Below, piece by piece: positions 4,243-58,574 of a stretch of DNA of 64,000 nt. Numbering within the stretch: position 1 is the first letter of the stretch; each line of letters begins with the position of its first letter. The notes under the pieces are model-generated. The model was not told the DNA's origin. It was given only the letters and a program-made list of their open reading frames with translations, and ran no database searches. The stretch is from an uncultured Candidatus Saccharibacteria bacterium (lineage in GTDB: Bacteria; Patescibacteriota; Minisyncoccia; Phycocordibacterales; Phycocordibacteraceae): contig CAZQGQ010000001.1 in NCBI GenBank assembly GCA_964593365.1, forward strand, positions 178,384-242,383, in the 5' to 3' direction. A program made the translations under genes and the position numbers.

Positions 4243-4246
4243 CAAA

Positions 4247-4290: not shown

Positions 4291-4332
4291 CACATGCCTC
4301 CAGAAACTGTCTTCGCGCCTCGAAGCTCTGTA

Positions 4333-4986: not shown

Positions 4987-5070
4987 TAAATTTCACAATT
5001 AGAGACTCTAGAGATAAGTGTCTCCGTGCTTTACAGCTCTAAATCTTAATTCCAACAACGTCCACTAGCT

Positions 5071-5119
5071 CGCGCAAAGTACAAGGCCATCTGAAAGGGT
5101 GGCTTTGTGCGTTATATAC
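5071..5119 (+). repeat. copy 2 of the ~45 nt direct repeat, with an imperfect hairpin (GGGTGGCTTTGTGC 3' arm conserved)
   Basis: 'cgcgcaaagtacaaggccatctgaaagggtggctttgtgcgttatatac' vs 4241-4283 'cgcaaagcacaaagccacccgaaagggtggctttgtgcgtgtatac'. Confidence 0.6.
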
Positions 5120-5127
5120 TCTCAAGC

Positions 5128-5631
5128 ATGACCACCAACCGTCGAAGCCTCTTTTTTGCTTTGGTTCTTATTGCCGTTGTCGTGCTCGGTATCTGGTATC
5201 TTACGAGCGTAAAGAGCGGAGAAGTGCCTGAAGAGACGTGGACGCATGAATATATTCCCTACCCTCACCCTCAATTCGTTCCGCAGTGGCCAAACGAGTT
5301 CCATAATGGTCTCGTCATATCGCCTCAGTCAGCATCAAGCGTAAAGGCGGACCAAGCGTATCTGGAGAGTCCCGGTTTTATTGTCGTGCATCGCGTAGTT
5401 CGGGATTCTCCTGAAGAAGTGTTAGGCGTAAGTTCGTATCTTGCTAATGGCCTTCATAAGGACGTGCCGCTTAATGCTTCTCTTGAGGCAAACTCAATCT
5501 ATTTCGCTTTTCTCTACGCGGATGACGGAGACAGGGTCTTTGACATTACCAAAGACGCAAGACTTAAGTTCTACGACGCGCCGAACAAGACATACCCTGA
5601 AAACCGGGTCGCTCAGTTTGAGACCCTATAA
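5128..5631 (+). CDS. hypothetical N-anchored protein
   Basis: Start moved to ATG 5128 (MTTNRRSLFFALVLIAVVVL TM helix); no known domain. Confidence 0.45.
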   Translation: MTTNRRSLFFALVLIAVVVLGIWYLTSVKSGEVPEETWTHEYIPYPHPQFVPQWPNEFHNGLVISPQSASSVKADQAYLESPGFIVVHRVVRDSPEEVLGVSSYLANGLHKDVPLNASLEANSIYFAFLYADDGDRVFDITKDARLKFYDAPNKTYPENRVAQFETL

Positions 5632-8666: not shown

Positions 8667-8742
8667 GCCATCGTAGCTCAGTTGGTAGAGCATCTCACTC
8701 GTAACGAGAAGGTCGCCGGTTCAATCCCGGCCGATGGCTCCA
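8667..8742 (+). tRNA. tRNA-Thr (CGU), CCA encoded
   Basis: Acceptor gccatcg/cgatggc, anticodon loop cuCGUaa, T-arm gccggttcaatcccggc, 3' CCA. Confidence 0.75.
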
Positions 8743-8745
8743 AAC

Positions 8746-9522
8746 TCACTTCGATCCTTTTTGTCTCCAGAGAAAGTCGAAATATCGTTGGTAATTCTTT
8801 GCGATCTCGGAGTTGATTATCTCAACGACAAAATACGACCCGATATACGAGCGAATAGCGATGCGATCATCCATAATCGCCGTGCAACTCGTGTCGCTTG
8901 TGATAAGTGGATTCTGTTTGAACTCAGTTAAGCCCTTCGTTGTCTTGGCGTACGTTCGGTCTTTAGCCATAACGTCAGGAACGATATGCTTCAAATGGAG
9001 TTTCTTTTGCTTTTGCAGATCTGCGAGTTCTTCAACTACCCCGGGACCCATAATGTCGTACCACTGCGGGGACACACCAAGAAAGCGAAGGGTGCTACCG
9101 ACTTTCGCATTTCCGTACGTTCTGCGCTCGTGTTGTCGTATCTCATCTATTCCTTCGTACACGACAATCCCTTGGGCACTGCCTTTTGAAAGGGAAGAGA
9201 GTTCTCTGATAGCGTCTTTTGCGACGGCCTCCTTCTCATGGATCGCACTTAAGAGCTGAATGGGTGGGAGCGCTCGGTATACGGCAACCCCTTTTATTTG
9301 GGATACGGATATAAGCTTCTTATCAACAAGTTCCGAAAGAGCCGTGTATACAAGATTTCGGTGAAGTCCCGTGCTTTTGATAAGTTCTCCCGCTTTAGCC
9401 TCGCCTTCGCGCGAGAGTTTCAGATACACCGTTGACTGGTTGGGAGTAAGCCCGACCTTTTGCAAGTTCTGATATAAGGCTGTCATCAGGTATATGATAG
9501 CGTTCGCATAAACCAGTGTCAA
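8746..9522 (-). CDS. TrmB-family transcriptional regulator (N-terminal wHTH)
   Basis: N-terminal 'LTPNQSTVYLKLSREGEAKAGELIKSTGLHRNLVYTALSELVDKKLI' HTH typical of the TrmB family; gene lies in a lower-GC segment. Confidence 0.55.
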   Translation of the reverse strand: MTLVYANAIIYLMTALYQNLQKVGLTPNQSTVYLKLSREGEAKAGELIKSTGLHRNLVYTALSELVDKKLISVSQIKGVAVYRALPPIQLLSAIHEKEAVAKDAIRELSSLSKGSAQGIVVYEGIDEIRQHERRTYGNAKVGSTLRFLGVSPQWYDIMGPGVVEELADLQKQKKLHLKHIVPDVMAKDRTYAKTTKGLTEFKQNPLITSDTSCTAIMDDRIAIRSYIGSYFVVEIINSEIAKNYQRYFDFLWRQKGSK

Positions 9523-9592
9523 TATGACAAAGCTGTCATAAGGGGAGGTGTCATCATAAATATGTTGACTTTACTGGATTTTCTATGATATT

Positions 9593-10015
9593 TTGCCCTC
9601 GCTACATATGACACATTCAACACCGACATCGACAGGCGACCCGTTCGGTTACTTACTTACCCTTGACCTATACGGGTGCCAAGAAGGCGCCTGTGATGAT
9701 CTTGATCTCTGTTATCGCTTCCTTGTTGATCTTGTAGAGAAGCTTGGCATGCATAAACAGTCACCGCCTTTCATATTCAGAAGCGACGAACAGAAGTATC
9801 CAGATAAAGCAGGTCTCTCCGGATGGGTTCCGCTCATAGAAAGCGGTATTCAGATACACACACTTATCCCGAAAAACTTCATATCAGTCGACGTTTACTC
9901 ATGTAGGGAGTTCTCGACAGATGAAATCGCCGAATTTGCCAAAGGATACTTCGCCTGCGAGGAGGTCGAGATGAACTTTGTCCTTCGAGGTTTGAAATAT
10001 AACCAAATAACCTAA
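9593..10015 (+). CDS. speH: S-adenosylmethionine decarboxylase proenzyme, small bacterial/archaeal class (pyruvoyl-dependent)
   Basis: Aligns by eye to B. subtilis SpeD: 'LYGC', processing-site 'ESG' and 'IQIHTLIPKNFISVDVYSCRE' (cf. [24 protein letters not shown]). Confidence 0.65.
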   Translation: MPSLHMTHSTPTSTGDPFGYLLTLDLYGCQEGACDDLDLCYRFLVDLVEKLGMHKQSPPFIFRSDEQKYPDKAGLSGWVPLIESGIQIHTLIPKNFISVDVYSCREFSTDEIAEFAKGYFACEEVEMNFVLRGLKYNQIT

Positions 10016-10020
10016 ATCTC

Positions 10021-10836
10021 ATGACTCGCCCTGAAATGCCGTCTTCTGTAGAAACAGATCTTTCTGCGATTGAGAGCAAGGACTTCGGTACCTATTGGTA
10101 CTTGGTCCAGAAGTTCTATCACGAGAAGTTCTTCAACTCAGACTATCTGGGAAGCCTTATTGCGTATCTCGATAAACTACAGCCAGCTAGGGTCCTTGAT
10201 GCTTCCTGTGGCATTGGGTATCCAGCTATTGAACTGGCTCAGCATGGTTTCAATATCACCTGCAGTGACGGCGACGAATCGCTTCTCCGGGTATTTGAAA
10301 AGCGATTGAGAGAGAGCGATGTTGCGATACCCATCCATCACGCTCGTTGGGCAGAGCTCCCAGAAAAAATAGATGGAACGTTTCCGATTGTCCTGTGTCT
10401 TGATAGTTCGATAACGTATGCAAACTCATGGGGAAGTGAAGGAGAAATAAATCTGCCTCAGACTCGGGAAGAGATACGTAAATCCCTTCAGGGTTTCTAC
10501 GACATGCTCGAACCTGGGGGCAAAGCCGTAATAGGCCTTGGTGAGTACGCCTTTACCGATGATCGGGTAGAGGGAAAGATCGTCGATCTAGGCACCCAAG
10601 CGATAGGAGGCCAGACCGTTCAGCTTGTCTGGAAGCTTGAGTTTGACTATGAACAGAAGAAGAAAACCTGGCACTCAGTCTTCACTACTAACGGTAGAGA
10701 ATATACGCGGACATTCTATAGCTACATGCTCATGGCAGACGAGCTTGAGGAGCTATTACGAGAGGTTGGATTCACCGCTATAGAAACTGAGCCAACTCCG
10801 GGCGGGTACGACAGAAACGTTATCGCAACAAAATAG
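10021..10836 (+). CDS. class I SAM-dependent methyltransferase, glycine/sarcosine N-methyltransferase-like
   Basis: 'RVLDASCGIGYPAIELAQHGFNITCSDGDESLLRVFEKR' parallels GNMT '[40 protein letters not shown]'; downstream 'LCLDSS..GGKAVIG' also parallels GNMT. Confidence 0.6.
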   Translation: MTRPEMPSSVETDLSAIESKDFGTYWYLVQKFYHEKFFNSDYLGSLIAYLDKLQPARVLDASCGIGYPAIELAQHGFNITCSDGDESLLRVFEKRLRESDVAIPIHHARWAELPEKIDGTFPIVLCLDSSITYANSWGSEGEINLPQTREEIRKSLQGFYDMLEPGGKAVIGLGEYAFTDDRVEGKIVDLGTQAIGGQTVQLVWKLEFDYEQKKKTWHSVFTTNGREYTRTFYSYMLMADELEELLREVGFTAIETEPTPGGYDRNVIATK

Positions 10837-10840
10837 ACAT

Positions 10841-10866
10841 CGGTTCAATCCCGTCGATGGCTCCCG
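10841..10866 (+). repeat. direct repeat of the 3' end (T-arm plus acceptor) of tRNA-Thr(CGU); putative attR-like duplication
   Basis: 'cggttcaatcccgtcgatggctccc' vs tRNA 3' end 'cggttcaatcccggccgatggctcca' (8716-8742); 24/26 identity. Confidence 0.6.
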
Positions 10867-10896
10867 AGAGTTAGCAACATACGTTAATATAGGGGA

Positions 10897-17575: not shown

Positions 17576-17646
17576 TGCGAGATCGTCTAATGGTAGGACA
17601 ACGGACTCTGAATCCGTTTATCTAGGTTCGAATCCTAGTCTCGCAG
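17576..17646 (+). tRNA. tRNA-Gln (CUG)
   Basis: Acceptor tgcgaga/tctcgca, anticodon stem-loop acgga-cuCUGaa-tccgt, T-arm ctaggttcgaatcctag. Confidence 0.7.
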
Positions 17647-17658
17647 CAGTCATGAATA

Positions 17659-17726
17659 CCCTGTCTGGTGACCTAGACAGGTAACAGTCCGAAACGACCC
17701 GTCTAATGACCTAGACGGGTCGTTTC
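17659..17726 (+). repeat. two tandem hairpins sharing the loop core GACCTAGAC (7-bp stem and 15-bp perfect stem) between tRNA-Gln and the island
   Basis: cCTGTCTggtGACCTAGACAGg and GAAACGACCCGTCTAatGACCTAGACGGGTCGTTTC. Confidence 0.55.
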
Positions 17727-17851
17727 GTTCTATCTACACAAACTACGAAGATAGGTGCTCTTAACGCTATGGGTCAATAGAGATCCATTTATATGGGATC
17801 TTTATTGTGATAGAATTACTGGAAGGTTATATTCAGTAGCCTAACAATTTT

Positions 17852-19390
17852 ATGAGTAAAAAAGACAACAAGAAGACACTCAAAGTCCCTGCACTTAGGG
17901 TGAATCAGTGGCTAAAGAAGTGGGACGGTATTAAGTGGGATATCGGACAACACAGAAGGAAGCCGGAGAACTGTTTCTATGTTTTTTCGCTGTCAGCAAA
18001 GCAACTCAGAGCTCTTTCAGGTGTTTATAGGCGAGATACGCAAACGCGTACTGGTCTGCAAAGAACCCATGAGCCAAAGCGATCCGAGAATATCGGTAAG
18101 TACGTTAAATATGGATACCCTTGGTCTGACTTAACAGACGATCAGAGAAAGGAAGGGCGTTTTGATCATTTACAGAAACCGGGATGGCTACCTACAGCAA
18201 TTGTGGTAAACATTCTTACAAAGGACGATTCACGCAATGGGAAAAAAGTTGCAGCTGAAGATTTGATCAAAATCATAAGTGACACACAAAAAAATACTCA
18301 AATAGAGCTTCCAAAATCATTTACAAATTCTGAAACATGGAAAGTAAAACAGGAACGCCCCATCGAGATTATTGATGGGCAACATCGCTTGTTGGCTTTT
18401 GACGATGACGAGATATCCGGTGATTACGAATTACCAGTAGTTGCATTTTATGGACTGGATATTAGTTGGCAGGCATATCTATTTTGGACGATCAACATTA
18501 AGCCAAAACGAATCAACCCAAGTTTAGCTTACGATCTTTATCCATTACTGCGTACAGAGGAATGGTTGGAGCAGTTTGAAGGGCATAAAGTTTACAGAGA
18601 AGTTAGGGCACAGGAACTTGTTGAAATGCTTTGGTCAGAAGAGAAGAGTGCATGGTATCGAAGAATTAATATGTTGGGAGAAAGTGGCGGCCCTTCAGTT
18701 ACTCAGGCTGCGTGGATTCGAGCTCTTACTAAAACTTTTATCAAATCATTTGAGGGAGGAAAGAAAAATAAAATTGGAGGATTGTTTGGTGCGCCGGTTG
18801 GAAAAGACAAAATTGCAATTCCTTGGAATCGCGCTCAGCAAGGAGCGTTGTTGATCCATTTATGGAATGAGATAAGTGAGGCCGTTGAAAATTCCAAAGA
18901 AAGATGGGTAAAGGAGCTTCGTGATAAAAAGAAACAAGAATACAAGCGAGGGATTGATGGAGATGTTGCTTTATTCGGGCCGTATTCGTTGTTGACTAAT
19001 GACCAAGGTGTCTCCGTGGTTCTAAATATTAGCAATGACCTCCTCTTTCTGGAGAAAGACAAGCTTAACCTACAGGAGTGGGAATTTGATGCCGAGGGTA
19101 GCGTTACCGAAGCGCTCAGTTCACTTACAAAAAAACAAAAAAAGTTATCAGAATACGTATCTCGTCTCGCTAAAGCGATAGCAACTTTTGACTGGAGAAC
19201 ATCTGCAGCTGTGGGCTTAACGGAAAATGAACGGACGCAGAAACTTTCTTATAGAGGTGGTAGTGGGTATAAGGAATTTCGCAGGCAACTTCTTAAGCAT
19301 CTTATCAATGATGCTCATTTTGGTGACTCTGCAAAGGAGATCTATCAAGCTCTAGGATATGCCAAGGAAGACACCAAAAAAATCAAATAA
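17852..19390 (+). CDS. DGQHR-domain protein (DndB-like, ParB/sulfiredoxin fold)
   Basis: Signature 'EIIDGQHRLLAF'; low-GC gene, first in a four-gene overlapping operon. Confidence 0.65.
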   Translation: MSKKDNKKTLKVPALRVNQWLKKWDGIKWDIGQHRRKPENCFYVFSLSAKQLRALSGVYRRDTQTRTGLQRTHEPKRSENIGKYVKYGYPWSDLTDDQRKEGRFDHLQKPGWLPTAIVVNILTKDDSRNGKKVAAEDLIKIISDTQKNTQIELPKSFTNSETWKVKQERPIEIIDGQHRLLAFDDDEISGDYELPVVAFYGLDISWQAYLFWTINIKPKRINPSLAYDLYPLLRTEEWLEQFEGHKVYREVRAQELVEMLWSEEKSAWYRRINMLGESGGPSVTQAAWIRALTKTFIKSFEGGKKNKIGGLFGAPVGKDKIAIPWNRAQQGALLIHLWNEISEAVENSKERWVKELRDKKKQEYKRGIDGDVALFGPYSLLTNDQGVSVVLNISNDLLFLEKDKLNLQEWEFDAEGSVTEALSSLTKKQKKLSEYVSRLAKAIATFDWRTSAAVGLTENERTQKLSYRGGSGYKEFRRQLLKHLINDAHFGDSAKEIYQALGYAKEDTKKIK

Positions 19391-20717
19391 CACCTTTCCT
19401 TCGAATGCATATTCAAGGGAAGCGACCCAGGCAACCTTCAATAGACTGAAGGCTTATCTTGATGATGATCGCTGGCTTGCGCGAGGGAATCGATATGCGA
19501 TCAAATGTGTTGATCGTATTCGAAAGGACTATAAGCAAGACTCTAGAACGAAAGTAATTACAAACGATATAGTCGAGAAGCATCTTGCTGAATATATAGC
19601 TGCTTCTGCGCCTGTCCACGCAATAGATGGGTGGGGTTTTTTAGGGAAAGCAATCGCAAGTCACTCAATTGGAGATATTGAGGCATGTAAGCATTTTGCT
19701 TATTATGCGCAGCTTCGAGCTGTCATGTCACTGATGGCCAGTGAAGGTATTGGAGTTTTTGATAACAAGCATTTTGCAATAAAGAATGCGGATCGGAGAA
19801 CTTCGTCTGTGACAGCCCCGAAAAAGAGTTCCACGCATGATTTTGCAGGTTCGCAGTTTAGATCATGGGCAAAATCAAAGAGTTCCGGAGCTCTGCTTGA
19901 GAAGATAATTCGACCCAGAGGTATCTCTCTTGAGGAATGGTTTAAGGAAATTTCACCAACAAAAGTTAGTTGGCTGGCTCAAGACTGGCTTGATCATTGG
20001 GGATATGACTTAAATAAATTTAAGAAAGATCAAGATGCTCGAAACAGAGCAAGTTATAGACCAACAATTCTAGACCGTGACTTAAATTATCGAAACGCTT
20101 CAGTTGTAAGTGACTCGATTGAACTTGTGGATGCGATCTGGAGAATGTGTTCACCTGATAGCGTCGGTGGTTTCAGCCTGGATTTGCAGCTAATGAGAGT
20201 TAGTTGGGATGAATATTCGCGTATGAGAGGAACGACTCCGACTCGAGCTGATAGAGAAAAGGTTTTAAGTGACTTAGGTATCTTGCAACCAGAATTAGGT
20301 AATCTAGTCGACTTTTTTGAACGTACAACTTCATCCGTAGATTCAATCATCTTAACTGAAGCACGTAAGAAAGGTTCACCCGAAGATGTCGATTATCACT
20401 CGCAAATGCTATGTCGTGCCACAATTCTGCTACGTCTTGCCACTGGGGCATCAGCTTCTCTTATAGCAAAGGCTAAGTTCGATAAGGATGATTTGAAGTT
20501 TTGGTCAGATTTTGTTGGTGAGAACTCGGGCTTGTGGGAGTCAGGTGCTCCAAACCCTATTACAGATATGTGGAACGAAGTTGAAGAAGCTTTGCATGAC
20601 CTCAACGTTAAAGCACCCTCAATTAATAATCATTATAAATGGCGTTCTGAACTCGCAAATGAAGTACTGACCTTGTCTGGGTGTGAGCGTATTGGTTTAG
20701 CCCGATTTTGCCTATGA
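19359..20717 (+). CDS. hypothetical protein, no recognisable domain (island component 2)
   Basis: 452 aa; 32-nt overlap with the upstream gene and 10-nt overlap with the downstream one. Only a weak P-loop-like 'GWGFLGKA'. Confidence 0.5.
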   Translation: MPRKTPKKSNNTFPSNAYSREATQATFNRLKAYLDDDRWLARGNRYAIKCVDRIRKDYKQDSRTKVITNDIVEKHLAEYIAASAPVHAIDGWGFLGKAIASHSIGDIEACKHFAYYAQLRAVMSLMASEGIGVFDNKHFAIKNADRRTSSVTAPKKSSTHDFAGSQFRSWAKSKSSGALLEKIIRPRGISLEEWFKEISPTKVSWLAQDWLDHWGYDLNKFKKDQDARNRASYRPTILDRDLNYRNASVVSDSIELVDAIWRMCSPDSVGGFSLDLQLMRVSWDEYSRMRGTTPTRADREKVLSDLGILQPELGNLVDFFERTTSSVDSIILTEARKKGSPEDVDYHSQMLCRATILLRLATGASASLIAKAKFDKDDLKFWSDFVGENSGLWESGAPNPITDMWNEVEEALHDLNVKAPSINNHYKWRSELANEVLTLSGCERIGLARFCL

Positions 20718-21961
20718 AATACATGGGCTCAAAACGTTATATGTTAAATAACGGTCTTGGTACTTTGATACGAGATCAGTTACCTCATGCTAACAGGGTG
20801 ATAGATCCATTTTGTGGAGCAGGATCAGTAATTCAATTTGCAGCAAAGAATTCTGATAAGGAGATAATTGCCGGCGATCTTCAGCAGTATGCAATTGTAC
20901 TCGCAAGGGCTGTTATTGAACGTACAAAGCCAGTTGATGTGCCTATGTTACAGACTAGTTGGTTACTTAAGGCGGAAGAACAACTGTCGAGATCTAAGCT
21001 TTTTCTGCAAGCAAAGAAGAACGACATTAATTATTCCCAAAATGTAGAAGAGTGGGTAAAAAAATCTCGCCAACTATGTGAGATTCCTTCAAAGATTGGA
21101 CCTGTATGGGGTGCTTACGGTGGTCATTACTTCAGTCCTAAGCAAGCGCTTATTATTGATTATCTTATTAAGTGTTTGCCTGAGAAGACCACTGACCGGA
21201 ATGTCTGTTTAGCTGCCCTGATAACTGCAGCTTCAAGATGTGCTGCAGCTCCGGGACATACAGCCCAGCCTTTTCAACCTACTGAAGGTGCTTCTAAGTT
21301 TATAAAGATCTCTTGGAACATGGATGTGCTCAAGTCTTGTTTAAATGCTTTGACTGAGATCGCACCGCTACATGCCAAAACAAATGGTGCTGCATATGTT
21401 GGAAGCGCTGAGAAGCTCACACAAAAAATGCAAAAAGGAGATCTGGTAATAATTGACCCTCCTTATTCAGGGGTACAATATAGTCGTTTTTATCATGTAT
21501 TAGAGACCATCGCGCGTGGCAAATGCGGAAAGGTAGAAGGGGTAGGGCGTTATCCTGTATTGTCAGAGCGCCCTCAGTCGTCTTTTAGTAATGTTGGTCA
21601 ATCTGTCGAAGCTCTCGATATTCTTCTAAAAAAGTTATCAGAGAGAGAAGTTGTCGTAATTTTTACTTTCCCTAAGGGCGATTGCAGTAACGGTTTATCC
21701 GGAAAGGTGATTGCAGACAGTGCAAAAAAGTATTTCACAATAGATAAAAAGAGCAGAACACACCATCATGTAGTGAAGGGTAAGTTCAGCACTTTAGGTG
21801 GAAATAATAAACTTAAACTAAAAAACAACGAGGTTAAAAGATCTCGAGTGACCTCTGAGGAGCTTATCCTCCTTCTTAAGCCGAGAGTATCAAAGTCAGT
21901 ATCACGTAGCAAACAAAAACAAAAGATAAAAACACGTAAGAGCTATGCACAATATCGGTAA
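20708..21961 (+). CDS. D12-class (Dam-like) N6-adenine DNA methyltransferase with a Lys-rich C-terminal tail
   Basis: 'YMGSKRYML' (cf. KWAGGKR), 'DPFCGAGSV' (FxGxG) and catalytic 'IIDPPYSG' (DPPY). Confidence 0.7.
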   Translation: MPMKYMGSKRYMLNNGLGTLIRDQLPHANRVIDPFCGAGSVIQFAAKNSDKEIIAGDLQQYAIVLARAVIERTKPVDVPMLQTSWLLKAEEQLSRSKLFLQAKKNDINYSQNVEEWVKKSRQLCEIPSKIGPVWGAYGGHYFSPKQALIIDYLIKCLPEKTTDRNVCLAALITAASRCAAAPGHTAQPFQPTEGASKFIKISWNMDVLKSCLNALTEIAPLHAKTNGAAYVGSAEKLTQKMQKGDLVIIDPPYSGVQYSRFYHVLETIARGKCGKVEGVGRYPVLSERPQSSFSNVGQSVEALDILLKKLSEREVVVIFTFPKGDCSNGLSGKVIADSAKKYFTIDKKSRTHHHVVKGKFSTLGGNNKLKLKNNEVKRSRVTSEELILLLKPRVSKSVSRSKQKQKIKTRKSYAQYR

Positions 21962-22823
21962 AAAGATAACTATATATCTCGTTACAGGACTTCCAAAAGG
22001 AGTTCGAGAGGCCCGTATCGATCAGTGGAGTGGTAAAGCAGTTTGCGGTCCTCGAAACGCATTAAAAGAGATAATCGCTTTGCCTGAAGTTGAGTCGGGC
22101 GCATGTATATATTTTCTTATAGGCATTCCAGATGACGGAGGGTTGCTTGATGTATATGTTGGAGAAGCAGATGGGTTTAAAGAAAGAATTAAACACCATG
22201 ACTACAAGAAAGAGTGGTGGCAAGACGTTGTAGTATTTGTCAGTCAAGATAAATCACTTACAAAAACGGGAATTCAGTATCTTGAGAGTGTTTGTATCGA
22301 GCGTCTAAAGCAGATTGGCAAATGTAATCTTAAGAATGGTAATAGTCCCTCTCTACCTACAACGCCTAAGGAAGACTTAAGTGGTCTCGAACTGTTTTAT
22401 ATGAATCTTGCAACAATTATGCCCTTGCTTGGTTATGATATCTTTGTTCAAAACGAAAAATCACCTGGTAAGAATACGGTAGAGAGTCCAGTTTTTACGT
22501 GCAAGAAAGGAGTGAATATTGTTGCGGAAGCATATTTACTCGAAGATGGAAAAATGCGTGTTTTAAAAGGGTCAAAAGCGTCAGCAGAAGAAACACCTTC
22601 TTTTCAAAGCCATCCATATAAAAAACTAAAAAATGAGTTAATAAAAATCAATCGCTTGGTACCTCAAGGTGACATTCTTATCTTTTCTGATGATTACGTT
22701 TTTGACAGCTCAAGCGCTGCATCAGCCGTTATACAAGCTCGATCTTCACCGGGACCTATAGAATGGAAACTGAAAAAGGGAGGTAAAACTTTGAGAGAGT
22801 ATCTAAACTCAAAGATTCAATGA
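21945..22823 (+). CDS. GIY-YIG nuclease domain protein with a C-terminal DUF4357-like domain
   Basis: 'ACIYFLIGIPDDGGLLDVYVGEADGFKERIKHH' fits GIY-(10-11 aa)-YIG plus the Arg/Glu pattern; 17-nt overlap with the methyltransferase. Confidence 0.55.
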   Translation: MHNIGKKITIYLVTGLPKGVREARIDQWSGKAVCGPRNALKEIIALPEVESGACIYFLIGIPDDGGLLDVYVGEADGFKERIKHHDYKKEWWQDVVVFVSQDKSLTKTGIQYLESVCIERLKQIGKCNLKNGNSPSLPTTPKEDLSGLELFYMNLATIMPLLGYDIFVQNEKSPGKNTVESPVFTCKKGVNIVAEAYLLEDGKMRVLKGSKASAEETPSFQSHPYKKLKNELIKINRLVPQGDILIFSDDYVFDSSSAASAVIQARSSPGPIEWKLKKGGKTLREYLNSKIQ

Positions 22824-22956
22824 GAGTTATAACTGCAGAAGCCATATTTTAATCTTCTCAGGTATTGAGACACGTCGCTTTAAACACTTCATACAACAGT
22901 ATAAGTTATTGATCTCACGCAATTTTCACGACCCTTTTTGTATCCTTCATAGCGTG

Positions 22957-22995
22957 AAAAACACCCGTGTCTTCAAGCAAGAAACGGGCGTTTTT
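22957..22995 (+). terminator. rho-independent terminator closing the island operon
   Basis: aaaacacccgt..aacgggcgttttt hairpin followed by a T-tract. Confidence 0.5.
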
Positions 22996-23024
22996 CATTT
23001 TCTTATCAGCTCATAACAAAAACT

Positions 23025-45988: not shown

Positions 45989-46061
45989 GAAGATATACGT
46001 GCTTGGTAACGCGCTCGGAGAGATCCGGGCGCGTTGCTTTTATGTGGTATACACTCATTCG

Positions 46062-46484
46062 ATGACCGAAGAGGAATTCAAGGCGCTTGCCGAATCTGTG
46101 TGGCAGGACCTCCCAGAGAAGTTTGCAGCGCGCATCAAGAATGTCGCGCTCTTGATCGAGGATGAGCCGGACGAAGAGACCAGGAAGGAAGAATGCCTTC
46201 TGGAAGGGGAATCCTTGTATGGGATCTACCGCGGCGTACCCAATACGCTTCGGGGCGCCGATTATGGAGTAGGCGGGACCCTTCCTGACACCATTACCCT
46301 GTATCGACTCCCCATACTGGAGGAGGCGAGAGAACTTACCGACACCGATACGAACATGTTCAAGGATATGGTGACAAAAGTGGTGCGAGAGACGGTCTGG
46401 CACGAGGTCGGCCACTATTTTGGCCTAGATGAGGATCCGATAAACAAGCGGGAAGGAGAGGGAACGAACAGGTTTGAGTCCTAG
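46062..46484 (+). CDS. zincin-like metallopeptidase family protein (DUF1025-type)
   Basis: 'TVWHEVGHYFGLDE' HExxH motif; start moved to ATG 46062. Confidence 0.55.
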   Translation: MTEEEFKALAESVWQDLPEKFAARIKNVALLIEDEPDEETRKEECLLEGESLYGIYRGVPNTLRGADYGVGGTLPDTITLYRLPILEEARELTDTDTNMFKDMVTKVVRETVWHEVGHYFGLDEDPINKREGEGTNRFES

Positions 46485-46511
46485 GCTGTCAGCTCGATAT
46501 ATACTGTTTGT

Positions 46512-46940
46512 ATGAAAAAGTTTTACTACCTCGGCACGTTGGTATTTGTTTTTTTGGTTCCTACAGTCGTTGCCGGATTCTTTCTTTCTAACTTTATTTC
46601 CCTTGAAGCACTCGTGCCGTTTGTAATATTAGTCACAATCATAGGAAGTATCTGGGATGTGTGGGCTACTCGTCACGGAAGAAAGGATCGAGTATGGCTT
46701 TGGCAATTTAATCGTAAGAATACGCTTGGTCCGCGATTCCTTGGCTTACCAATTGAAGAGTATTTGTTCTATGTCGTGAGTAGCGTGTACGTAATCTTTA
46801 TGTGGGAAGGACTGAAACTTATGCTCGCAGGAACCGTCTCCCAGGTGTATTGGACTATTGCCGCATTAGCCGGATGGACTCTTGTCTCTTTAGCAGCGCC
46901 ATACATTCTAGCGCCCAAAGGCGATAAGGTACTGAGCTAG
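46512..46940 (+). CDS. lycopene-cyclase-domain membrane protein
   Basis: 'LGLPIEEYLFYVV' within a 4-5 TM protein resembles CrtYcd-type domains; low-GC gene. Confidence 0.4.
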   Translation: MKKFYYLGTLVFVFLVPTVVAGFFLSNFISLEALVPFVILVTIIGSIWDVWATRHGRKDRVWLWQFNRKNTLGPRFLGLPIEEYLFYVVSSVYVIFMWEGLKLMLAGTVSQVYWTIAALAGWTLVSLAAPYILAPKGDKVLS

Positions 46941-46989
46941 AAAATTTCCAACATCGTCCCAGAGAGCCAGCAATGCTAAGCTGGTTTAC

Positions 46990-47532
46990 ATGAAAGAAGG
47001 CCATGTCATTTTCGATTTCGACCTCACGATTTGCTCTCTTGTAACAGACTGGGTTGAATGGCGAAAAGGAGTATGGAAACTTGTTAAAGAATTTGATCCT
47101 TCCTCTAATTACGAAGTAGAACAAATCAGGCATGCAACTCAGAACGATCTCATACATAAGTATGGTCTGGTCTTTAAAGCGCAGCTCGATAAAGCCAATG
47201 AAGAGCTCGAGCTGAAGTATATCGAGGGTTTTCTACCTAACGAAAAAGTAGTGGATTTCATACGAACCACAGATAAGAATCTTTACGTCTGGTCCTCTAA
47301 TTCGCGTGCAACTGTAGTGAAGCATCTGCAAGCTCTTGGCATAGAAGATAAGTTCCAGAAGATAGTGGCGCGAGAGCATGTGCATCTACTCAAGCCATCT
47401 CCTGAAGGCTTTTCCTTAATTTATAGTCCCCACAATATGTTAAAAGAGTACGTCCTCGTTGGCGATAGTGCATCGGATGCGAACGCAGCCTTAAATGCTG
47501 GAATTCGCTTTTTGCAGGTTGATTCCTTCTAA
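46990..47532 (+). CDS. HAD-superfamily hydrolase
   Basis: 'FDFDLT' motif I and 'VGDSASDANAALNAG' motif IV. Confidence 0.65.
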   Translation: MKEGHVIFDFDLTICSLVTDWVEWRKGVWKLVKEFDPSSNYEVEQIRHATQNDLIHKYGLVFKAQLDKANEELELKYIEGFLPNEKVVDFIRTTDKNLYVWSSNSRATVVKHLQALGIEDKFQKIVAREHVHLLKPSPEGFSLIYSPHNMLKEYVLVGDSASDANAALNAGIRFLQVDSF

Positions 47533-47598
47533 CCAGGCTCCAACATCGTCCAGCCAGCCAACTTGAGGCAGGCTCAGTGTCTAAGGTCGATGGTCTCG

Positions 47599-48699
47599 TC
47601 ATTCAGCTACTTCTGTCGGTGGAGCAGGAACTCTCGCTATTGCTTCCTCAAGAGCGTTATTAATCTGTTCAAGGATAGTCACAGCAGAACCAGAGCTTCC
47701 TATCGCATCCTCGCCTCGTATGGCAAAGGTCGATTTAGCCACCTTGAAATGAGTGAGTCTGAATTTGCGCAGGAATAGAAGACACTTTCGTAAAGATTGT
47801 GCCGATGCATTCTCTCCACCATGTCCATGCTGTAGCAGCTTTGATAGCGCAGAAGGCTTACCTAAAAGCTGTGCTGCAAACTCTCTGTATACGCGGGGGC
47901 CATTAGCAGCGCTGTGGGTAATATGCGAGTTGTACCACTCCTGGTTGGAATCTGAGCTCCAGAGAAGTAGGTCAACGAGATATATAGGGACTTGCGCACC
48001 TCCAGGGCCAAAGTATTCCTTACCTTCGAACTTGATAGGATCTGAATAGGGTCGGATGCTGTTCATGAATACGTCAGGCGGAATATTGCGCGCCTCTCGC
48101 ATGCCCTCGACCATTCCTCCAAGTCCGGTAACGATTTTCTCGCAAAGAGAGACGTACTCTGCCGAGTTCTCAGGCGTGCGGCTGAGCTGTTCAGCACTCT
48201 CGATCGCTAGGAATAACGAATCCATACCTATCTGGAAACCACGAAGAAGCGCACGTTCATGCTCGCTACTTGAGAAGGTACGCAGGCGCTCACCAGGCGG
48301 ATTTCTAAAGATGTAGGTATATACGGAATCACGCGGTGATTCTCCAGTTAGTTCTATGAGCCGGCGAGCTGTATCCCGTATTTCCGGATGGGCTTCAATA
48401 TCGACACCGCGTACGCCAAGAGCAGTTGTTAGGAAGCAGAAATCGCGATGCACAGCGAAGAGCTGTTCTCGGGTATGAGGACTCGCGAGGAATGCGTCAG
48501 TGCGCTTAGAAAGGGATATCGCTTCTTGCAGGAGCTCCTCCATATTTCTTGACTCATTGAGCTCCCGGAAGCGGGTTTTGAAAAACTCGTCTGCCTCAAG
48601 CGGGTCATATTCTCGAACACGCTCATCAAAATTCACCCATTCGTTGATTTGCTCAACGTTGTTTTTGGGTTTATTGGAGCCTGCTTCAGGATCAATCAT
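47599..48699 (-). CDS. hypothetical protein (366 aa)
   Basis: Low-GC; no confident family match (faint resemblance to PrnB/IDO-like helical proteins). Confidence 0.4.
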   Translation of the reverse strand: MIDPEAGSNKPKNNVEQINEWVNFDERVREYDPLEADEFFKTRFRELNESRNMEELLQEAISLSKRTDAFLASPHTREQLFAVHRDFCFLTTALGVRGVDIEAHPEIRDTARRLIELTGESPRDSVYTYIFRNPPGERLRTFSSSEHERALLRGFQIGMDSLFLAIESAEQLSRTPENSAEYVSLCEKIVTGLGGMVEGMREARNIPPDVFMNSIRPYSDPIKFEGKEYFGPGGAQVPIYLVDLLLWSSDSNQEWYNSHITHSAANGPRVYREFAAQLLGKPSALSKLLQHGHGGENASAQSLRKCLLFLRKFRLTHFKVAKSTFAIRGEDAIGSSGSAVTILEQINNALEEAIARVPAPPTEVAE

Positions 48700-48812
48700 T
48701 GGGGCAATAATACCATTTCAAAATAAAGGACAAACCTCGTACATTGGCCACCTAGACAGAGCCTGGCATAGATTGCATTTGGGTTCCACCATCGTCCCAG
48801 ACAGCCAGCAAG

Positions 48813-49250
48813 GTGCTGTATTCTAAATACATGGATATTTTTGAAGAAGTACGAAAGCAGAACTTCCCATCAGGGCACTACATAGTCGTTGGAAGCGGCA
48901 TTATGGTTGTAAAAGGAATTAGAGATACACAGGATCTAGATATTGTAGTTTCAGAAGCATTATTTGAGCAGTGTAAGGCTGAAGGCTGGGAAACCCATGA
49001 ATGGACCAAGGCTCATATTCCCGGTAAACCCTGGCTTAGAAAAGGAAACGTGGAGCTCTACATTGAGATCAGTAGAAAAACGGGCGGCATACCTCTCGAA
49101 GGTCTTCTAGCCGAAGCAGAAGTAATTCAAGGAATACCGTTCATTACCTTAGAAAGACTCATAGATTTTAAAAAAGAGTACGGTCGTCAGAAAGATTTTG
49201 AGGATATAGAAATGATCGAGCAGTATTTAAGAAATACTCAAAGTTCTTAG
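48813..49250 (+). CDS. hypothetical protein
   Basis: GTG start at 48813 (ATG alternative at 48831); unknown function. Confidence 0.4.
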   Translation: MLYSKYMDIFEEVRKQNFPSGHYIVVGSGIMVVKGIRDTQDLDIVVSEALFEQCKAEGWETHEWTKAHIPGKPWLRKGNVELYIEISRKTGGIPLEGLLAEAEVIQGIPFITLERLIDFKKEYGRQKDFEDIEMIEQYLRNTQSS

Positions 49251-49298
49251 AACAGCTCCAGCATCGCCTCAGCCACCCGGCGGGGGTATAATTTCTAT

Positions 49299-49706
49299 AT
49301 GCAAAAGGTTGTTAGGAAGGTCACTTTCGCAGACGTAGTAGTGGCTATTCTGTTTCTCGTAAGCCCGGTGGCTGGTATTTATTTCAGAACCCTGAGAGCG
49401 ATATATTTTGACTACTACACGGGGCTTATAAATGACCCTGGCCATCGATGGGTAGCAACCTTCAATAAGATTCTCGTCATTCTCGTCGCTGCTGGCACTG
49501 CAATTTTATACAATCTCAACCGTGACAATCCTTCAAACTGGATCTCCTATTTCAGCGACGACGTGTTCCTTAACATGGCTTTTGCTCAGACTGCTGGCTG
49601 GCCAAGCTTCTTCATCCTCTATGCGCTTTCGGCGATGTTGTATTTCTATGGGAAGTATAGAGACGTTCTTATCAGGAAAATAAACGAGAATGCCAAAGTC
49701 TGGTAG
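49299..49706 (+). CDS. hypothetical membrane protein (4 TM)
   Basis: Hydrophobic 135-aa ORF. Confidence 0.4.
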   Translation: MQKVVRKVTFADVVVAILFLVSPVAGIYFRTLRAIYFDYYTGLINDPGHRWVATFNKILVILVAAGTAILYNLNRDNPSNWISYFSDDVFLNMAFAQTAGWPSFFILYALSAMLYFYGKYRDVLIRKINENAKVW

Positions 49707-49755
49707 TAGATGTAAACGTCGTTCCCGAGAGACAACAGCCTGTTAGTATGACCAC

Positions 49756-50223
49756 ATGGTTTCCCTTTGCTCGATGAAGAATATTCTAATCACAGCCGCA
49801 GCACTCATTCTCGTCGGAGGCGCTGCTTACTTCCTTACGCAGGAAGAGTCGCAGGTTCCGCCTACAGACATGCCTGCACCCGAGCAGACTCGCGGTGCGC
49901 CAGTATTCAAGTGGTCTTTTGAAGAGGGTGAAGAGGAAGGCATTCAGCAGACGAGCATCAGCCTCACCGCGACCTACGAGAATGGTACATCTGACACCAA
50001 GCTCATTGCCGCGATAGAAGGAGGCTGCAACAGCTACGAGAATGCGGATAGCGACGTATACGAGCACTCTACAATGATCATCTGCTACTACGCTGGGCTT
50101 GGCCGGTACTTCAAAGTGATTGAGGACGGGGAAGGATATGTTGTCCAGCAGCGGATGTTCGAGGAAGCATCACCTGATTACAATCCGCCACAGCGTCCCT
50201 ACGAAAATCTCACGCGATTCTAG
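49756..50223 (+). CDS. secreted hypothetical protein
   Basis: Signal peptide/anchor then a Cys-containing domain. Confidence 0.4.
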   Translation: MVSLCSMKNILITAAALILVGGAAYFLTQEESQVPPTDMPAPEQTRGAPVFKWSFEEGEEEGIQQTSISLTATYENGTSDTKLIAAIEGGCNSYENADSDVYEHSTMIICYYAGLGRYFKVIEDGEGYVVQQRMFEEASPDYNPPQRPYENLTRF

Positions 50224-50589: not shown

Positions 50590-50643
50590 GGTCTTGATGA
50601 AAGGCTAGCACGAAGGTGTACCTGCATCCACCAAACAATCGTC

Positions 50644-50922
50644 ATGCTACGATTTGCCTACGACATGCCTGCGTATTTCGTCTATCTCCTTGAATGCAGC
50701 GACGGGAGTATCTACACCGGTATCGCAACTGACGTTGCACGAAGGTTTCAGGAGCACCAAAAGGGCATCGGTAGCCACTTCACGCGTGCTCGGAAAGTGA
50801 AGAACGTGTTATACACGGAAAAGCACCCGACTCGAAGCTCGGCCTTGAAACGAGAGTATGAAATAAAGGGCTGGACGAGAAAGAAGAAGCTCCTCCTAGT
50901 GCAGCAAGGCGGACCCGCATAA
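50644..50922 (+). CDS. GIY-YIG nuclease superfamily protein (UPF0213/YhbQ-like)
   Basis: 'YFVYLLECSDGSIYTGIATDVARRFQEH' GIY..YTG..R..E motif. Confidence 0.65.
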   Translation: MLRFAYDMPAYFVYLLECSDGSIYTGIATDVARRFQEHQKGIGSHFTRARKVKNVLYTEKHPTRSSALKREYEIKGWTRKKKLLLVQQGGPA

Positions 50923-56639: not shown

Positions 56640-58574
56640 TTATACTCCGATCAAGACCGGGATAACCATCGGTGCCTTGTTGGTTCGAGAGAACAGATAG
56701 CCTGCCATGGTGTCGGTAAGCTGGTTCTTCACGAAATCAAGGTCAACCGGGTTCATTCCCTCAGTCGAGTCCTCGACTGTCTTCTTGATGAGAAGGCGGG
56801 CTTGGTTCAGAAGATCCTGAGACTCTCGCAGATAGATGAATCCGCGGGAGATGATATCAGGGGACTTCCGCAGTTTGCCGGTCTTTAGGTGCACGGTCGC
56901 GATGATGACGAACATGCCGTCCTTGGCGAGCATCTGGCGGTCGCGGATCACGACCTCCTGCATGTCGCCGATGGCGAATCCGTCGACAATCAACGGAGCG
57001 TTTGGCACCTTATCCTTGTGGATCATGAGGCGCTCGCCGTCCACGATGTCGATCACCATGCCGTTATCGGCAAGGACGATGTTCTCGCGAGGGAAGCCTG
57101 CCTGCTCGACTGCCTTTGCGTGTGAGCTTGTCATAGAGTAGTAGCCGTACGCTGGCATGAAGAACTTCGCGTTCACCTGCTTGTTGATCCAGACCAACTC
57201 TCCGGTTTGTCCGTGTCCTGTGGAGTGCACGTCAGAGGAGCGGTAATGGATCAGGGTGACCTTGTTGCGGAAGAGGTTATCCTTCAAGCGCTGCACGGCG
57301 ATCTCGTTTCCAGGAATAACCGATGACGAGAGCACGATAGTATCTCGCTCGTTAAGCGTGATGCTCTTGTGCTGCTTGGTTGCGATGCGCATAAGCGCTG
57401 CGAATTCCTCACCCTGCGCGCCTGTTGCCAAGACGACGATCTTGTCTGGCGGATAATCGCCTATCTCGGTCGCGGGGACAACGGTTCCCTTGGCGATCTT
57501 GAGGAGGCCGGTCTTCTCTGCGATCTCAAGGTTCGTCTTGATCGAACGGCCTTCCATAACCACCTTCTTCCCGAGTCGCTCGGCGATCTGGATGATATGG
57601 ATCATGCGCTCGAACTGGGACGCGAAGGTGCCGATAATGAGGCGTCCTTTCACCGTCTTCACGATCTCCTCCAAGGTCTCATGGACCTTTCGTTCGGGGA
57701 TCGAGAAGCCGTCCTTCTCGGCGTTTGTTGAGTCTGCAATAAAGAACAGGTTGTTGTCCTTTCCGATCTCGCCCCACTTCTTGGCTTCTGCTTCAGTGGC
57801 GACGCCATCGACATGGTCGAGCTTCAAGTCTCCTGTCGCAACGACGTTGCCGTAGGGCGTCTCGATCGAGATACCCATCGAGTCAGGGATAGAGTGCGTG
57901 ACTGGGAAGAACTTCACTCGTGTTCCTCCAATGGTGTGCGTTGACCCAGGCTCAACCACCACGAGGTTTGGAGCGGGCATCTCAGGATATTCTTCCTGAC
58001 GCTTCTGGATCATCACGGCAGAAAGGTTCTGCGTGTAGATAGGGGGGTTCCCGAATCGGTTCATGAGGAACGGGATGCCGCCGATGTGGTCGAGGTGGCC
58101 GTGGGTAATGAAGACCGCGCGTACGCGTTCTTGGTTCTTCTCAAGGTAACTGGTGTTAGGGAGCATGTAGTCGACGCCTGGAGCCGTGTCTTCGGAGACG
58201 AACTGGAAGCCCACGTCGCAGACGAAGATATCGTTGCCGCTTTCAACGGCAAACATGTTGCGTCCCACTTCCTCGACGCCGCCAAGAGGCACGATGCGAA
58301 CGACGTTTGGTGCGACTGGGTCAGGGAAGTAATCAGCTACTTTTCGGACTGTTGGGGCCGAGGGGGATCGGCGCATGCCGCCGCGGCGCATGTCGCGCTG
58401 CTTTCCTCCGGATCGTCCGCCTGCTGCGCGAGGTCCTCCGGTTCGAGGTCCGCGAGACGGGCCCTGGGGCCCTGCTCCGCGATTGCCGCGGAAGGGAGGG
58501 CGTCCACCTGCCTGATCGCCGCCTTGGCGGGAATCTGGAGCGGGTGCTGGGGCCGGTGCTGGTGCAAAGTTCAT
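56640..58574 (-). CDS. rnj: ribonuclease J (metallo-beta-lactamase/beta-CASP) with ~90-aa N-terminal RG-rich extension
   Basis: 'FITHGHLDHIGG' HxHxDH motif, beta-CASP and C-terminal domains; N-terminus 'PAPAPAPAP..RGNRGAGPQG'. Confidence 0.85.
   Translation of the reverse strand: MNFAPAPAPAPAPDSRQGGDQAGGRPPFRGNRGAGPQGPSRGPRTGGPRAAGGRSGGKQRDMRRGGMRRSPSAPTVRKVADYFPDPVAPNVVRIVPLGGVEEVGRNMFAVESGNDIFVCDVGFQFVSEDTAPGVDYMLPNTSYLEKNQERVRAVFITHGHLDHIGGIPFLMNRFGNPPIYTQNLSAVMIQKRQEEYPEMPAPNLVVVEPGSTHTIGGTRVKFFPVTHSIPDSMGISIETPYGNVVATGDLKLDHVDGVATEAEAKKWGEIGKDNNLFFIADSTNAEKDGFSIPERKVHETLEEIVKTVKGRLIIGTFASQFERMIHIIQIAERLGKKVVMEGRSIKTNLEIAEKTGLLKIAKGTVVPATEIGDYPPDKIVVLATGAQGEEFAALMRIATKQHKSITLNERDTIVLSSSVIPGNEIAVQRLKDNLFRNKVTLIHYRSSDVHSTGHGQTGELVWINKQVNAKFFMPAYGYYSMTSSHAKAVEQAGFPRENIVLADNGMVIDIVDGERLMIHKDKVPNAPLIVDGFAIGDMQEVVIRDRQMLAKDGMFVIIATVHLKTGKLRKSPDIISRGFIYLRESQDLLNQARLLIKKTVEDSTEGMNPVDLDFVKNQLTDTMAGYLFSRTNKAPMVIPVLIGV

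Follow-up and report, generated by a model that had tools for sequence, protein, structure and literature searches.

The stretch of DNA analysed here, hereafter the window, is a 64,000-nucleotide portion of the genome of an uncultured Candidatus Saccharibacteria bacterium (assembly GCA_964593365.1, contig CAZQGQ010000001.1, positions 178,384 to 242,383). Between 46.5 and 50.2 kb it encodes six short open reading frames (ORFs), three of them without a Pfam family, which stand behind a Zincin_1 gene (45999-46484) and are accompanied by a recurring motif of about 28 nt. A sequence-only reading of the window had described this region as an array of cassettes with one gene per repeat, of integron type or of another site-specific type, with a shared promoter or operator as the alternative.

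The array begins with a short attB-like site, termed here B-type (GGTTTGAGTCCTAGGCTGTCAGCT, 46471-46494, plus strand), which overlaps the end of the Zincin_1 gene and covers its final codons (RFES*) and its stop codon. Cassette 1 (46495-46973, plus strand) consists of a TATACT -10 box, an ORF (46512-46940) and motif copy A at its end; the product is a membrane protein of 142 aa (G+C 0.44) with a borderline Pfam match to Lycopene_cyc, which backs, at that level, the lycopene-cyclase domain proposed earlier, and a homologue located after Zincin was found in L008 only, among the DsbA-Zincin loci of relatives that were compared. Cassette 2 (46974-47562, plus strand) encodes a HAD_2 hydrolase (46990-47532; Pfam, 3.5e-20), as had been predicted, and ends with the truncated copy B. 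The gene of cassette 3 (47563-48811) is inverted: its minus-strand ORF (47599-48699), previously called an unknown protein, is PrnB-like (Pfam PrnB, 5.4e-13), and copy C lies at the right end of the unit. Cassette 4 (48812-49284, plus strand) carries an ORF of 139 aa (48831-49250, G+C 0.40) without a Pfam match, followed by the degenerate copy D, and cassette 5 (49285-49742, plus strand) a membrane protein ORF (49299-49706) followed by a doubtful relic, E. A possible sixth cassette (49756-50223, plus strand) encodes a secreted protein of 155 aa; no recognisable site was found 3' of this ORF, which is missing at the homologous position in all relatives compared. The G+C content of the array genes is 0.40-0.50 (0.53 for the sixth ORF) versus 0.54-0.56 for the genes of the left flank, so that the array is indeed AT-richer than that flank. 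A -10-like box is present 6-8 nt 5' of the ATG of every plus-strand array gene, hence the promoters of these genes are of leaderless type. No recombinase was detected by Pfam among the 30 proteins scanned in the window.

The motif copies of the window were searched with the 28-mer, allowing up to 3 mismatches, against 100 shuffles, and were scored with a position matrix derived from 238 copies of other genomes (among the matches listed), the shuffle maximum of which was 5 bits. Two of the copies, both on the plus strand, are intact, attP-type sites, termed here P-type: site A (TAGAAAATTTCCAACATCGTCCCAGAGAGCCAGCAAT, 46938-46974, 28-mer core 46946-46973), with 0 mismatches to the 28-mer and 46.0 bits, and site C (CATTTGGGTTCCACCATCGTCCCAGACAGCCAGCAAG, 48776-48812, core 48784-48811), with 1 mismatch and 43.9 bits. 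Zero matches of this quality are expected from the shuffles, and the recurrence of the motif is therefore real and non-random; the four near-identical copies announced by the sequence-only reading come down to these two, a truncated one and a decayed one. Indeed, site B (CTCCAACATCGTCCAGCCAGCCAAC, 47538-47562) matches exactly over its opening 14 nt and then has an internal deletion, with an edit distance of 7 to the 30-mer (a distance of 8 or fewer occurred 0-1 times in the shuffles), and site D (49248-49284), whose motif lies at about 49256 and not at 49266, reaches 15.7 bits, above every shuffle. Site E (AAACGTCGTTCCCGAGAGACAACAGCC, 49716-49742) was spotted by eye and is not significant alone, either with the 238-copy matrix or in a gapped scan with the full 30-mer. 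Only A and D sit, as described earlier, in a gap that follows one ORF and precedes another; at B the neighbouring genes converge, since the gene after it (47599-48699) is on the minus strand, and at C they diverge.

The motif is not restricted to this genome. An exact scan of metagenome contigs with an 18-mer (TTCCAACATCGTCCCAGA) matched at least 119 stretches, from which 12 metagenome loci with a chance 18-mer inside a conserved phage coding region were excluded. Among the matches listed, the same element of about 35 nt, A.AAAGGTTCCAACATCGTCCCAGAC.GCCAGCAA, is present in 238 copies on more than 100 Patescibacteria/Paceibacterota contigs, with the consensus TAAAAAGGTTCCAACATCGTCCCAGAC.GCCAGCAAT (43.8 bits); per-position identity exceeds 93% in the 5' block and is 55-88% in the 3' block, with no conservation outside these ~35 nt, and the G+C content of the host loci spans 0.28 to 0.63. 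In these same matches the copies are co-oriented, both strands being used in one locus only, and the median spacing is 530 bp. The intervals between copies contain one plus-strand gene in 52 cases, one minus-strand gene in 33 and no ORF of at least 60 aa in 32, the gene thus being inverted in 33 of the 85 single-gene intervals (~39%), and the stop codon of the upstream ORF is typically situated 1-6 nt 5' of the 18-mer. The cassette proteins fall into 173 clusters, just 8 of which were found in more than one locus. In Pfam, 75 single-gene cassettes gave NUDIX (7), HAD (4, the second commonest) and GNAT (2), with deformylase, Ham1, isochorismatase, asparaginase and others as singletons; no recombinase family is among the 25 of 32 Pfam families listed. 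The recurrent neighbours of the arrays are ordinary backbone genes only (dnaX, serS, pilB-like). A variable dinucleotide of the 3' block is array-specific, with a within-array identity of 0.446 versus a null of 0.172 +/- 0.025 (2000 permutations), which would be compatible with a crossover dinucleotide that needs a matching partner and, equally, with variation of the acceptor stem of the host tRNA-Gln.

Matches on viral contigs were rejected as cassette sites: all 35 IMG/VR hits (L144-L178) correspond to one conserved coding region of GC-rich phages, and so do the excluded metagenome loci (L045, L050, L065, L078, L086, L089, L107, L111, L113, L129, L133 and L142). A permissive Rfam search of the window array and of the L013 array returned chance-level hits only. 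Full-text literature searches found the 18-mer in no paper, and found no Patescibacteria cassette arrays, integrons or serine-recombinase islands at tRNA genes.

Comparison with relatives provided evidence that the units are inserted. Runs SRR6448204-SRR6448219 contain the identical locus in their Logan assemblies. When species-representative genomes were scanned with the neighbouring DsbA-like protein, 19 loci were obtained, all in Patescibacteria/Paceibacterota metagenome-assembled genomes (47-73% identity). The backbone DsbA-Zincin...MsrA is conserved in them, but what lies between Zincin and MsrA is different in each genome compared, the gap ranging from 66 bp (L020) to 5.4 kb (window); the region is thus variable and not syntenic and invariant. 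The motif itself is nearly unchanged in distant relatives with a DsbA only ~50% identical, with 10 copies right after Zincin in L013 and 5 in L016. Three loci (L023, L017 and L013) have in common the Zincin gene and a convergent downstream gene, and on this common backbone carry 0, 1 and ~12 cassettes, respectively, so that the occupancy of the locus varies. The empty site of L023 reads Zincin-TAA-acctaatcttccagcag, followed by aaaacaac..., and the occupied site of L017 reads Zincin-TAG-tctcccagcaa, then promoter-ORF-TAG-gattctaacatcgtcccagaccctcagcat, followed by aaaataca...; the empty site therefore contains CnnCCAGCA a single time, the insert is bordered by it on either side, and the 5' block of the motif arrives with the insert. 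Furthermore, a DUF218-like cassette is the 4th in L013, the 1st in L017 and the 3rd in L110; its nucleotide homology begins just past ...CCAGCAA and stops with the motif, and its flanks are unrelated. Varying occupancy and a shifting cassette speak for the site-specific, one-gene-per-repeat array of the sequence-only reading; its integron type, discussed below, did not hold.

Beyond the possible sixth cassette, a candidate relic (ATCCACCAAACAATCGTC, 50590-50640), not significant in the gapped 30-mer scan either, was noted 5' of a GIY-YIG homologue (50641-50922), and in L015 (13235-13270) a P-type site adjoins the ATG of a GIY-YIG (URI-domain) gene. The variable region of the window may extend to ~51.9 kb and take in the DUF2200, GIY-YIG and 3-dmu-9_3-mt genes.

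The site that heads the arrays pointed to the origin of the motif. Arrays begin with a shorter site, GGTTCGAA.CCTAG.CTGCCAGCA, located at the stop codon of the preceding gene or across it; that gene is Zincin in L013, L015, L017, L024 and the window, Ung in L026 and L067, a 227-aa gene without an assigned family in L016 and a 225-aa gene in L056; at the same position of the Zincin end, ggttcgaatccTAGtctgtcagca is found in L015 and ggttcgataccTAGtctgccagca in L013. The tRNA-Gln(ctg) gene of the genome under study (17576-17648, plus strand) ends with ctaGGTTCGAATCCTAGTCTCGCAGca, and the array-start site of the window shows 5 mismatches over 24 nt to the 3' half of this tRNA (GGTTCGAATCCTAGTCTCGCAGCA, 17625-17648) and 2 mismatches to the degenerate 16-mer TCCYAGWCTSNCAGCA. 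ARAGORN predicted a tRNA-Gln in 10 of the 52 motif loci scanned, usually 0.2-0.6 kb 5' of the first motif, and 16 tRNA genes of all other specificities, confined to 6 of these loci. A B-type site is present within 1.5 kb 5' of the first motif in 24 of the 47 loci having enough upstream sequence, and B-type sites lie on the motif strand in 38 cases and on the opposite strand in none. The 3' half of tRNA-Gln is thus the archetype of the B-type site.

The MAFFT alignment relates the motif to the same tRNA end. The tRNA-Gln end, GGTTC-----GAATCCTAGTCTCGCAGCA, pairs with the motif TTTCCAACATCGTCCCAGAGAGCCAGCA with an offset of exactly 5 nt, the outer GGTTC and inner TCC(C/T)AG.CT..CAGCA blocks being aligned in the tRNA-Gln end, the Zincin end and motifs A and C, and the extra five nucleotides between the blocks of the motif being CAACA. 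The motif is hence equivalent to a tRNA-Gln 3' end in which the outer GGTTC block is shifted 5 bp outward, a derivation that the sequence-only reading had missed. A fold at the RNA level, as a T-arm plus acceptor stem of a tRNA, was tried and rejected: the upstream partner strand is missing and replaced by stop codons, so that the site acts at the DNA level only. As a side observation, two B-type sites occur in each of three loci (L056, 2535 and 5619; L025, 7822 and 7921; L061, 5194 and 5346); each heads its own short P-type run in L056, and in L025 and L061 the pair is a tRNA with a tandem partial copy, which suggests excision scars or nested arrays.

Some of the motif sites are linked to a gene for a large serine recombinase (LSR). 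Locus L118 has the order tRNA-Gln, partial tRNA half, LSR, Rep, HTH_3 regulator with cargo, a degenerate motif and an array of six motif copies. Its LSR (486 aa, opposite strand; Pfam Resolvase 1e-20, Recombinase 2e-15 and Zn_ribbon_recom) had been missed by the signature scan and was recognised from the ORF lists beside the tRNA-Gln; its Rep is a rolling-circle protein (REP_ORF2-G2P). Homologues of this LSR number 2584 at E <= 1e-30, those with a named source being labelled Parcubacteria or Paceibacterota, and the genomic contexts of eight further homologues were examined. In total, LSRs with Resolvase, Recombinase and zinc-ribbon domains are linked to a motif site in L118, L126, L179 and L180-L187. 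Of the 11 LSR genes examined, nine either adjoin the 3' end of an opposite-strand tRNA (Gln, Lys or Ser) or a pseudo-Gln half-site, or extend into it: the final LSR codons overlap the tRNA-Gln 3' end in L179, L184, L185 and L187, and the partner of the LSR end is a pseudo-Gln half-site in L182, tRNA-Lys in L180 and L181, and tRNA-Ser in L183 and for the second LSR of L186. In 8 of these 9 cases the conserved arm recurs at the far end of the element, 3.5-6.5 kb away; behind it stand 7 more copies in L179 and 13 more in L182.

The junctions of these elements are hybrid. At the near end, the tRNA is followed by a conserved arm that codes for the LSR C-terminus; at the far end, the arm is joined to the 3' end of the target tRNA (Gln, Lys or Ser). 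In the Lys and Ser elements the arm is indeed fused to the 3' end of their own tRNA (GGGCGGAC and CACACTCTCCGC; the fusions were also recorded as AAAGTTCCAACATCGTCCCATAGGGCGGAC and AAGGTTCCAACTTCATCCCACACTCTCCGC), from which it follows that the 5' block of the motif is an element-borne arm of the LSR family and the 3' block is derived from the target. The site family, its tRNA origin and its link to LSR elements can thus be read directly from the loci compared. Moreover, a published rule for serine integrases states that the motif bound by the zinc-ribbon domain is present in both attP and attB half-sites and lies 5 bp nearer the centre in attB (Rutherford et al., PMC3783163); the 5-nt offset between the tRNA end (B-type) and the motif (P-type), which was assessed on the left half-site alone, is what this rule predicts. 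It was also observed that the last 4-6 codons and the stop of the LSR lie on the opposite strand of the tRNA 3' end (L179, 11440-11470; L180, L182 and L183), and that in an excised circle the ORF would read on through the conserved arm (L179: ...EIMLTVWDDVGTYLLS*); the C-terminus of the LSR would then differ between the integrated and excised forms, and the arm would also be coding.

Taken together, these data make it probable that the motif copies are att sites of a Patescibacteria LSR family, which would bound non-autonomous single-gene cassettes. In this model the conserved arm A.AAAGGTTCCAACATCGTCCCA would be an attP-type left half-site that travels with the inserted DNA, and the block GAC.GCCAGCAA would reproduce the discriminator and the 3' acceptor strand of tRNA-Gln, the target. 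The attB-type partner would be tRNA-Gln from its T-loop to its 3' end, or a sequence resembling it, for example the last Zincin codons with the next ~10 nt; in either partner the outer GGTTC block is 5 bp nearer the crossover. The LSR is expected to cut at P-type and B-type sites, and the crossover presumably falls within the variable dinucleotide of the 3' block or next to it. Integration at the tRNA would be the work of autonomous elements 4-7 kb long that comprise an LSR, a rolling-circle Rep, an HTH regulator and cargo. The window would represent the LSR-less form, a stack of five or six units behind the Zincin gene; each unit consists of one gene with a leaderless-type promoter of its own and ends in a P-type site, and the units could be mobilised in trans.

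As the motif bounds stacks of genes in many relatives, some of them beside an LSR, the whole looks like an integron-like gene-capture system. A bolder version, in which Patescibacteria have converged on the integron idea with one LSR, a B-type anchor and P-type free single-gene cassettes, is put forward tentatively and seems somewhat less likely to be right than wrong. Here the left half-site would by itself determine the identity of a site, by way of the 5-bp shift, as is suggested by the long tandem arrays beside a single B-type site; a B x P reaction would, on that premise, regenerate one B and one P site. Cassettes could then be inserted repeatedly at the anchor, and blocks of them excised, with no need for a directionality factor. 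In this version, small housekeeping and metabolite-repair genes would form a common pool from which these minimal genomes could draw and which they could exchange.

Several observations weigh against the LSR interpretation. An LSR is encoded neither in the 64-kb window nor in most of the array loci, and action in trans is assumed for this reason. The mini-cassettes have no conserved right half-site, only CCAGCA and an AT-rich tail, although the LSR elements do have one, namely the coding sequence of the LSR C-terminus. The motif has no visible dyad symmetry, whereas typical LSR sites are imperfect palindromes. Canonical LSRs without a directionality factor do not recombine attL or attR, so repeated insertion at one site requires an extra assumption, and B-type half-sites on the ends of unrelated protein genes are not made by simple tRNA integration. 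Finally, three of the five window sites (B, D and E) are degraded, hence the window array may be partly fossil, and part of it is probably no longer mobile.

Four other explanations were considered. A classical integron or CALIN, with attC sites folded as single strands and a tyrosine integrase IntI, would account for the single small unrelated gene per repeat, the integron-like cassette sizes (median 530 bp) and highly diverse gene content, and TTCCAAC fits the RYYYAAC box at 6 of 7 positions. However, no attC hairpin is formed: the free energy of the consensus motif is 0 and -0.3 kcal/mol on the two strands, both of which are essentially unstructured, and four real copies with their flanks fold no better than shuffles (z -0.7 to +1.1). 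For lack of a fold, the motif does not qualify as an attC. In addition, the inverse GTTRRRY partner is missing and conservation ends at ~35 nt, the cassettes have their own -10 boxes and are inverted in about 39% of the cases, contrary to the rule of mostly promoterless genes in one orientation, and the enzyme linked to the sites belongs to the serine recombinases. Searches near the arrays revealed no tyrosine recombinase: ~900 kb of loci contain no signature of the R-H-R-Y type, and tblastn with E. coli XerD and gamma-delta resolvase probes gave no hits in these loci and the window. The integron type proposed by the sequence-only reading thus has next to no chance of being correct. A dif/Xer-type site (28 bp, pdif modules) was also rejected, having regard to the lack of dyad symmetry, the many co-oriented copies per genome and the absence of a nearby Xer-like gene. 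The other proposal of that reading, a shared promoter or operator, here widened to include a terminator, by which the small genes would be regulated together without any role in rearrangement, agrees with the position of the intact window copies, 15-20 nt 5' of a -10-like box and ATG, and a protein-binding site would explain the strong conservation. The -10 box nevertheless follows the motif end at anything from 0 to more than 20 nt, the distance to the ATG varies too, the gene is on the opposite strand in 33 of the 85 single-gene intervals, some copies thus lying upstream of minus-strand genes, and copy B has no plus-strand gene downstream. The variable spacing and the 39% of inverted single-gene cassettes exclude a promoter in fixed register; the genes to be co-regulated are functionally unrelated, and empty versus occupied sites and the homology to tRNA ends would be left unaccounted for. 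This explanation is highly improbable.

Another possibility is that the copies are inert scars of successive full LSR elements that entered at one tRNA and were each deleted down to one cargo gene. LSR elements are indeed located at the tRNA-proximal head of arrays (L118, L179 and L182), many sites are decayed, window sites B, D and E among them, and tandem integrations with partial tRNAs between them are known for tycheposons (10.1101/2020.12.28.424599). Dozens of independent deletions would nonetheless be needed, each sparing the gene, promoter and site, whereas the size distribution is tight, one single-gene unit with identical boundaries occupies differing positions in three arrays, and the lone cassette at the Zincin site of L017 bears no trace of an LSR element. 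The scar explanation therefore appears unlikely. Alternatively, the repeats could serve as portable homology only, with RecA-dependent swapping between repeats of 30-35 bp after DNA uptake and no dedicated recombinase. Competence and type IV pilus genes are common in Patescibacteria, the direct repeats of ~35 bp are near-identical between genomes, and most arrays have no recombinase nearby. This explanation, judged very unlikely, explains neither first insertions at sites that have only ~10 nt in common with the motif (L017 versus L023) nor the 5-bp tRNA/motif offset, the linked LSR genes with tRNA-matched ends and the sharp edges of conservation.

Other tRNA-linked inserts are present in the window. 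In the region 4169-5135, a one-gene insert (4244-5077) adjoins tRNA-Asp (4169-4243) and contains an ORF (4294-4986, G+C 0.45) without a Pfam match. Its right end is a P-arm-like site (TTCCAACAACGTCCACTAGCTCGCGCAA, 5050-5077, plus strand; arm-like end TTCCAACAACGTCCAC), which confirms, as a 13-mer with 1 mismatch, the related copy that had been noticed at 5050 beside this tRNA. The 3' part of the site matches the tRNA-Asp end and its downstream sequence, and the GGTTC offset relative to the tRNA-Asp end is again exactly 5 nt (MAFFT); the copy at 5050 is thus apparently the same arm joined to the end of tRNA-Asp, a relationship that had been overlooked. A 42-nt stretch with a terminator hairpin and a -10 box is duplicated at 4239-4280 and 5071-5112 (90% identical). 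The tRNA-Asp insert looks like the work of the same recombination system, which does not account for the long 42-nt duplication. At 8667-10870, a 2.1-kb low-GC insert is flanked by tRNA-Thr(cgt) and, at ~10823-10870, by a partial repeat of the 3' part of this tRNA; it encodes a methyltransferase, a TrmB-like regulator and an AdoMet decarboxylase-like protein. As this insert lacks a P-arm, it was probably made by a different integration system. At 17576-23000, tRNA-Gln(ctg) precedes an island of 5 kb (G+C 0.39-0.42) that looks defence-related: its products are a DndB-like protein, an unknown protein of 452 aa, a DUF4357 protein and a D12 N6-adenine methyltransferase. At the far end of this island, neither a P-type site nor a recombinase was found. 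Lastly, ARAGORN predicted a tRNA-Phe of 104 nt (58179-58282, minus strand), ~30 nt above normal length, which suggests an intervening sequence; introns have been reported in tRNA genes of Patescibacteria (PMC13011429).

The proposed system can be set beside several known ones. Among staphylococcal cassette chromosome (SCC) elements, tandem composite islands and recombinase-less pseudo-SCC units occur. SCC and their Enterococcus counterparts (SCC/ECC) resemble the present elements in that their LSRs (CcrAB) insert cargo at the 3' end of a conserved gene, with direct repeats at each joint (PMC6222049). They differ in target, which is rlmH for SCC and here a tRNA (Gln, also Lys and Ser, probably Asp) or a look-alike, and in the form of the unit, SCC being islands of 20-60 kb and the cassettes described here mostly single genes of ~0.5 kb in arrays of up to 14; the arm is here conserved over a phylum-level group. 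With integrons the arrays have in common one primary anchor and an ordered stack of small, unrelated, mostly single-gene cassettes of very diverse content, each of which ends in a recombination site, but they have neither a folded attC nor a tyrosine IntI, the sites being apparently double-stranded serine-recombinase sites; their cassettes carry their own promoters in either orientation, and the anchor is the end of a tRNA and not an attI beside an integrase gene. Phage serine integrases (A118/LI, phiC31 and Bxb1) show the same Resolvase, Recombinase and zinc-ribbon domains and the 5-bp shift of the outer motif, whereas in the present case the left half-site alone is visibly conserved, no directionality factor was identified in the loci, and many tandem P-type sites stand beside one B-type site, which the reaction attP x attB -> attL + attR does not predict.

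Serial integration with tRNA-derived repeats between modules is likewise a feature of tRNA-anchored islands (tycheposons, Islander-type islands and Dehalococcoides ssrA islands). In the tycheposons of Prochlorococcus, successive elements integrate at one tRNA, older inserts are pushed outward and tRNA-derived repeats are left (10.1101/2020.12.28.424599), and serial integration anchored at tRNA/tmRNA genes is described for the ssrA islands of Dehalococcoides (PMC3146451). Tycheposons, however, use tyrosine recombinases and plain partial tRNA repeats. Here a serine recombinase is linked, and each repeat joins a fixed arm that is not tRNA-derived to only about 10 nt of tRNA, no more than the last 10-18 nt being in common with the tRNA; the modules are single genes, and arrays also begin at non-tRNA look-alikes. 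The arrays are probably best classed as serine-recombinase integrative elements reduced to phylum-wide single-gene cassette arrays, which belong beside SCC/ECC and tycheposons, integrons being a functional analogue only.

The genomes of CPR/Patescibacteria are very small, and their gene gain and loss are little understood. A natural set of matched attB/attP-like sites for one LSR family, at tRNA-Gln, -Lys, -Ser and probably -Asp, with a fixed arm and a target-derived core, would be useful for the study of site choice, direction and engineering of serine integrases, and the motif is a simple annotation marker for horizontally acquired Patescibacteria genes. The cargo consists of NUDIX, HAD, GNAT, deformylase, ITPase and similar enzymes, and the linked LSR family is widespread; if the interpretation is correct, the arrays would constitute a main route of accessory-gene flux in CPR/Patescibacteria.

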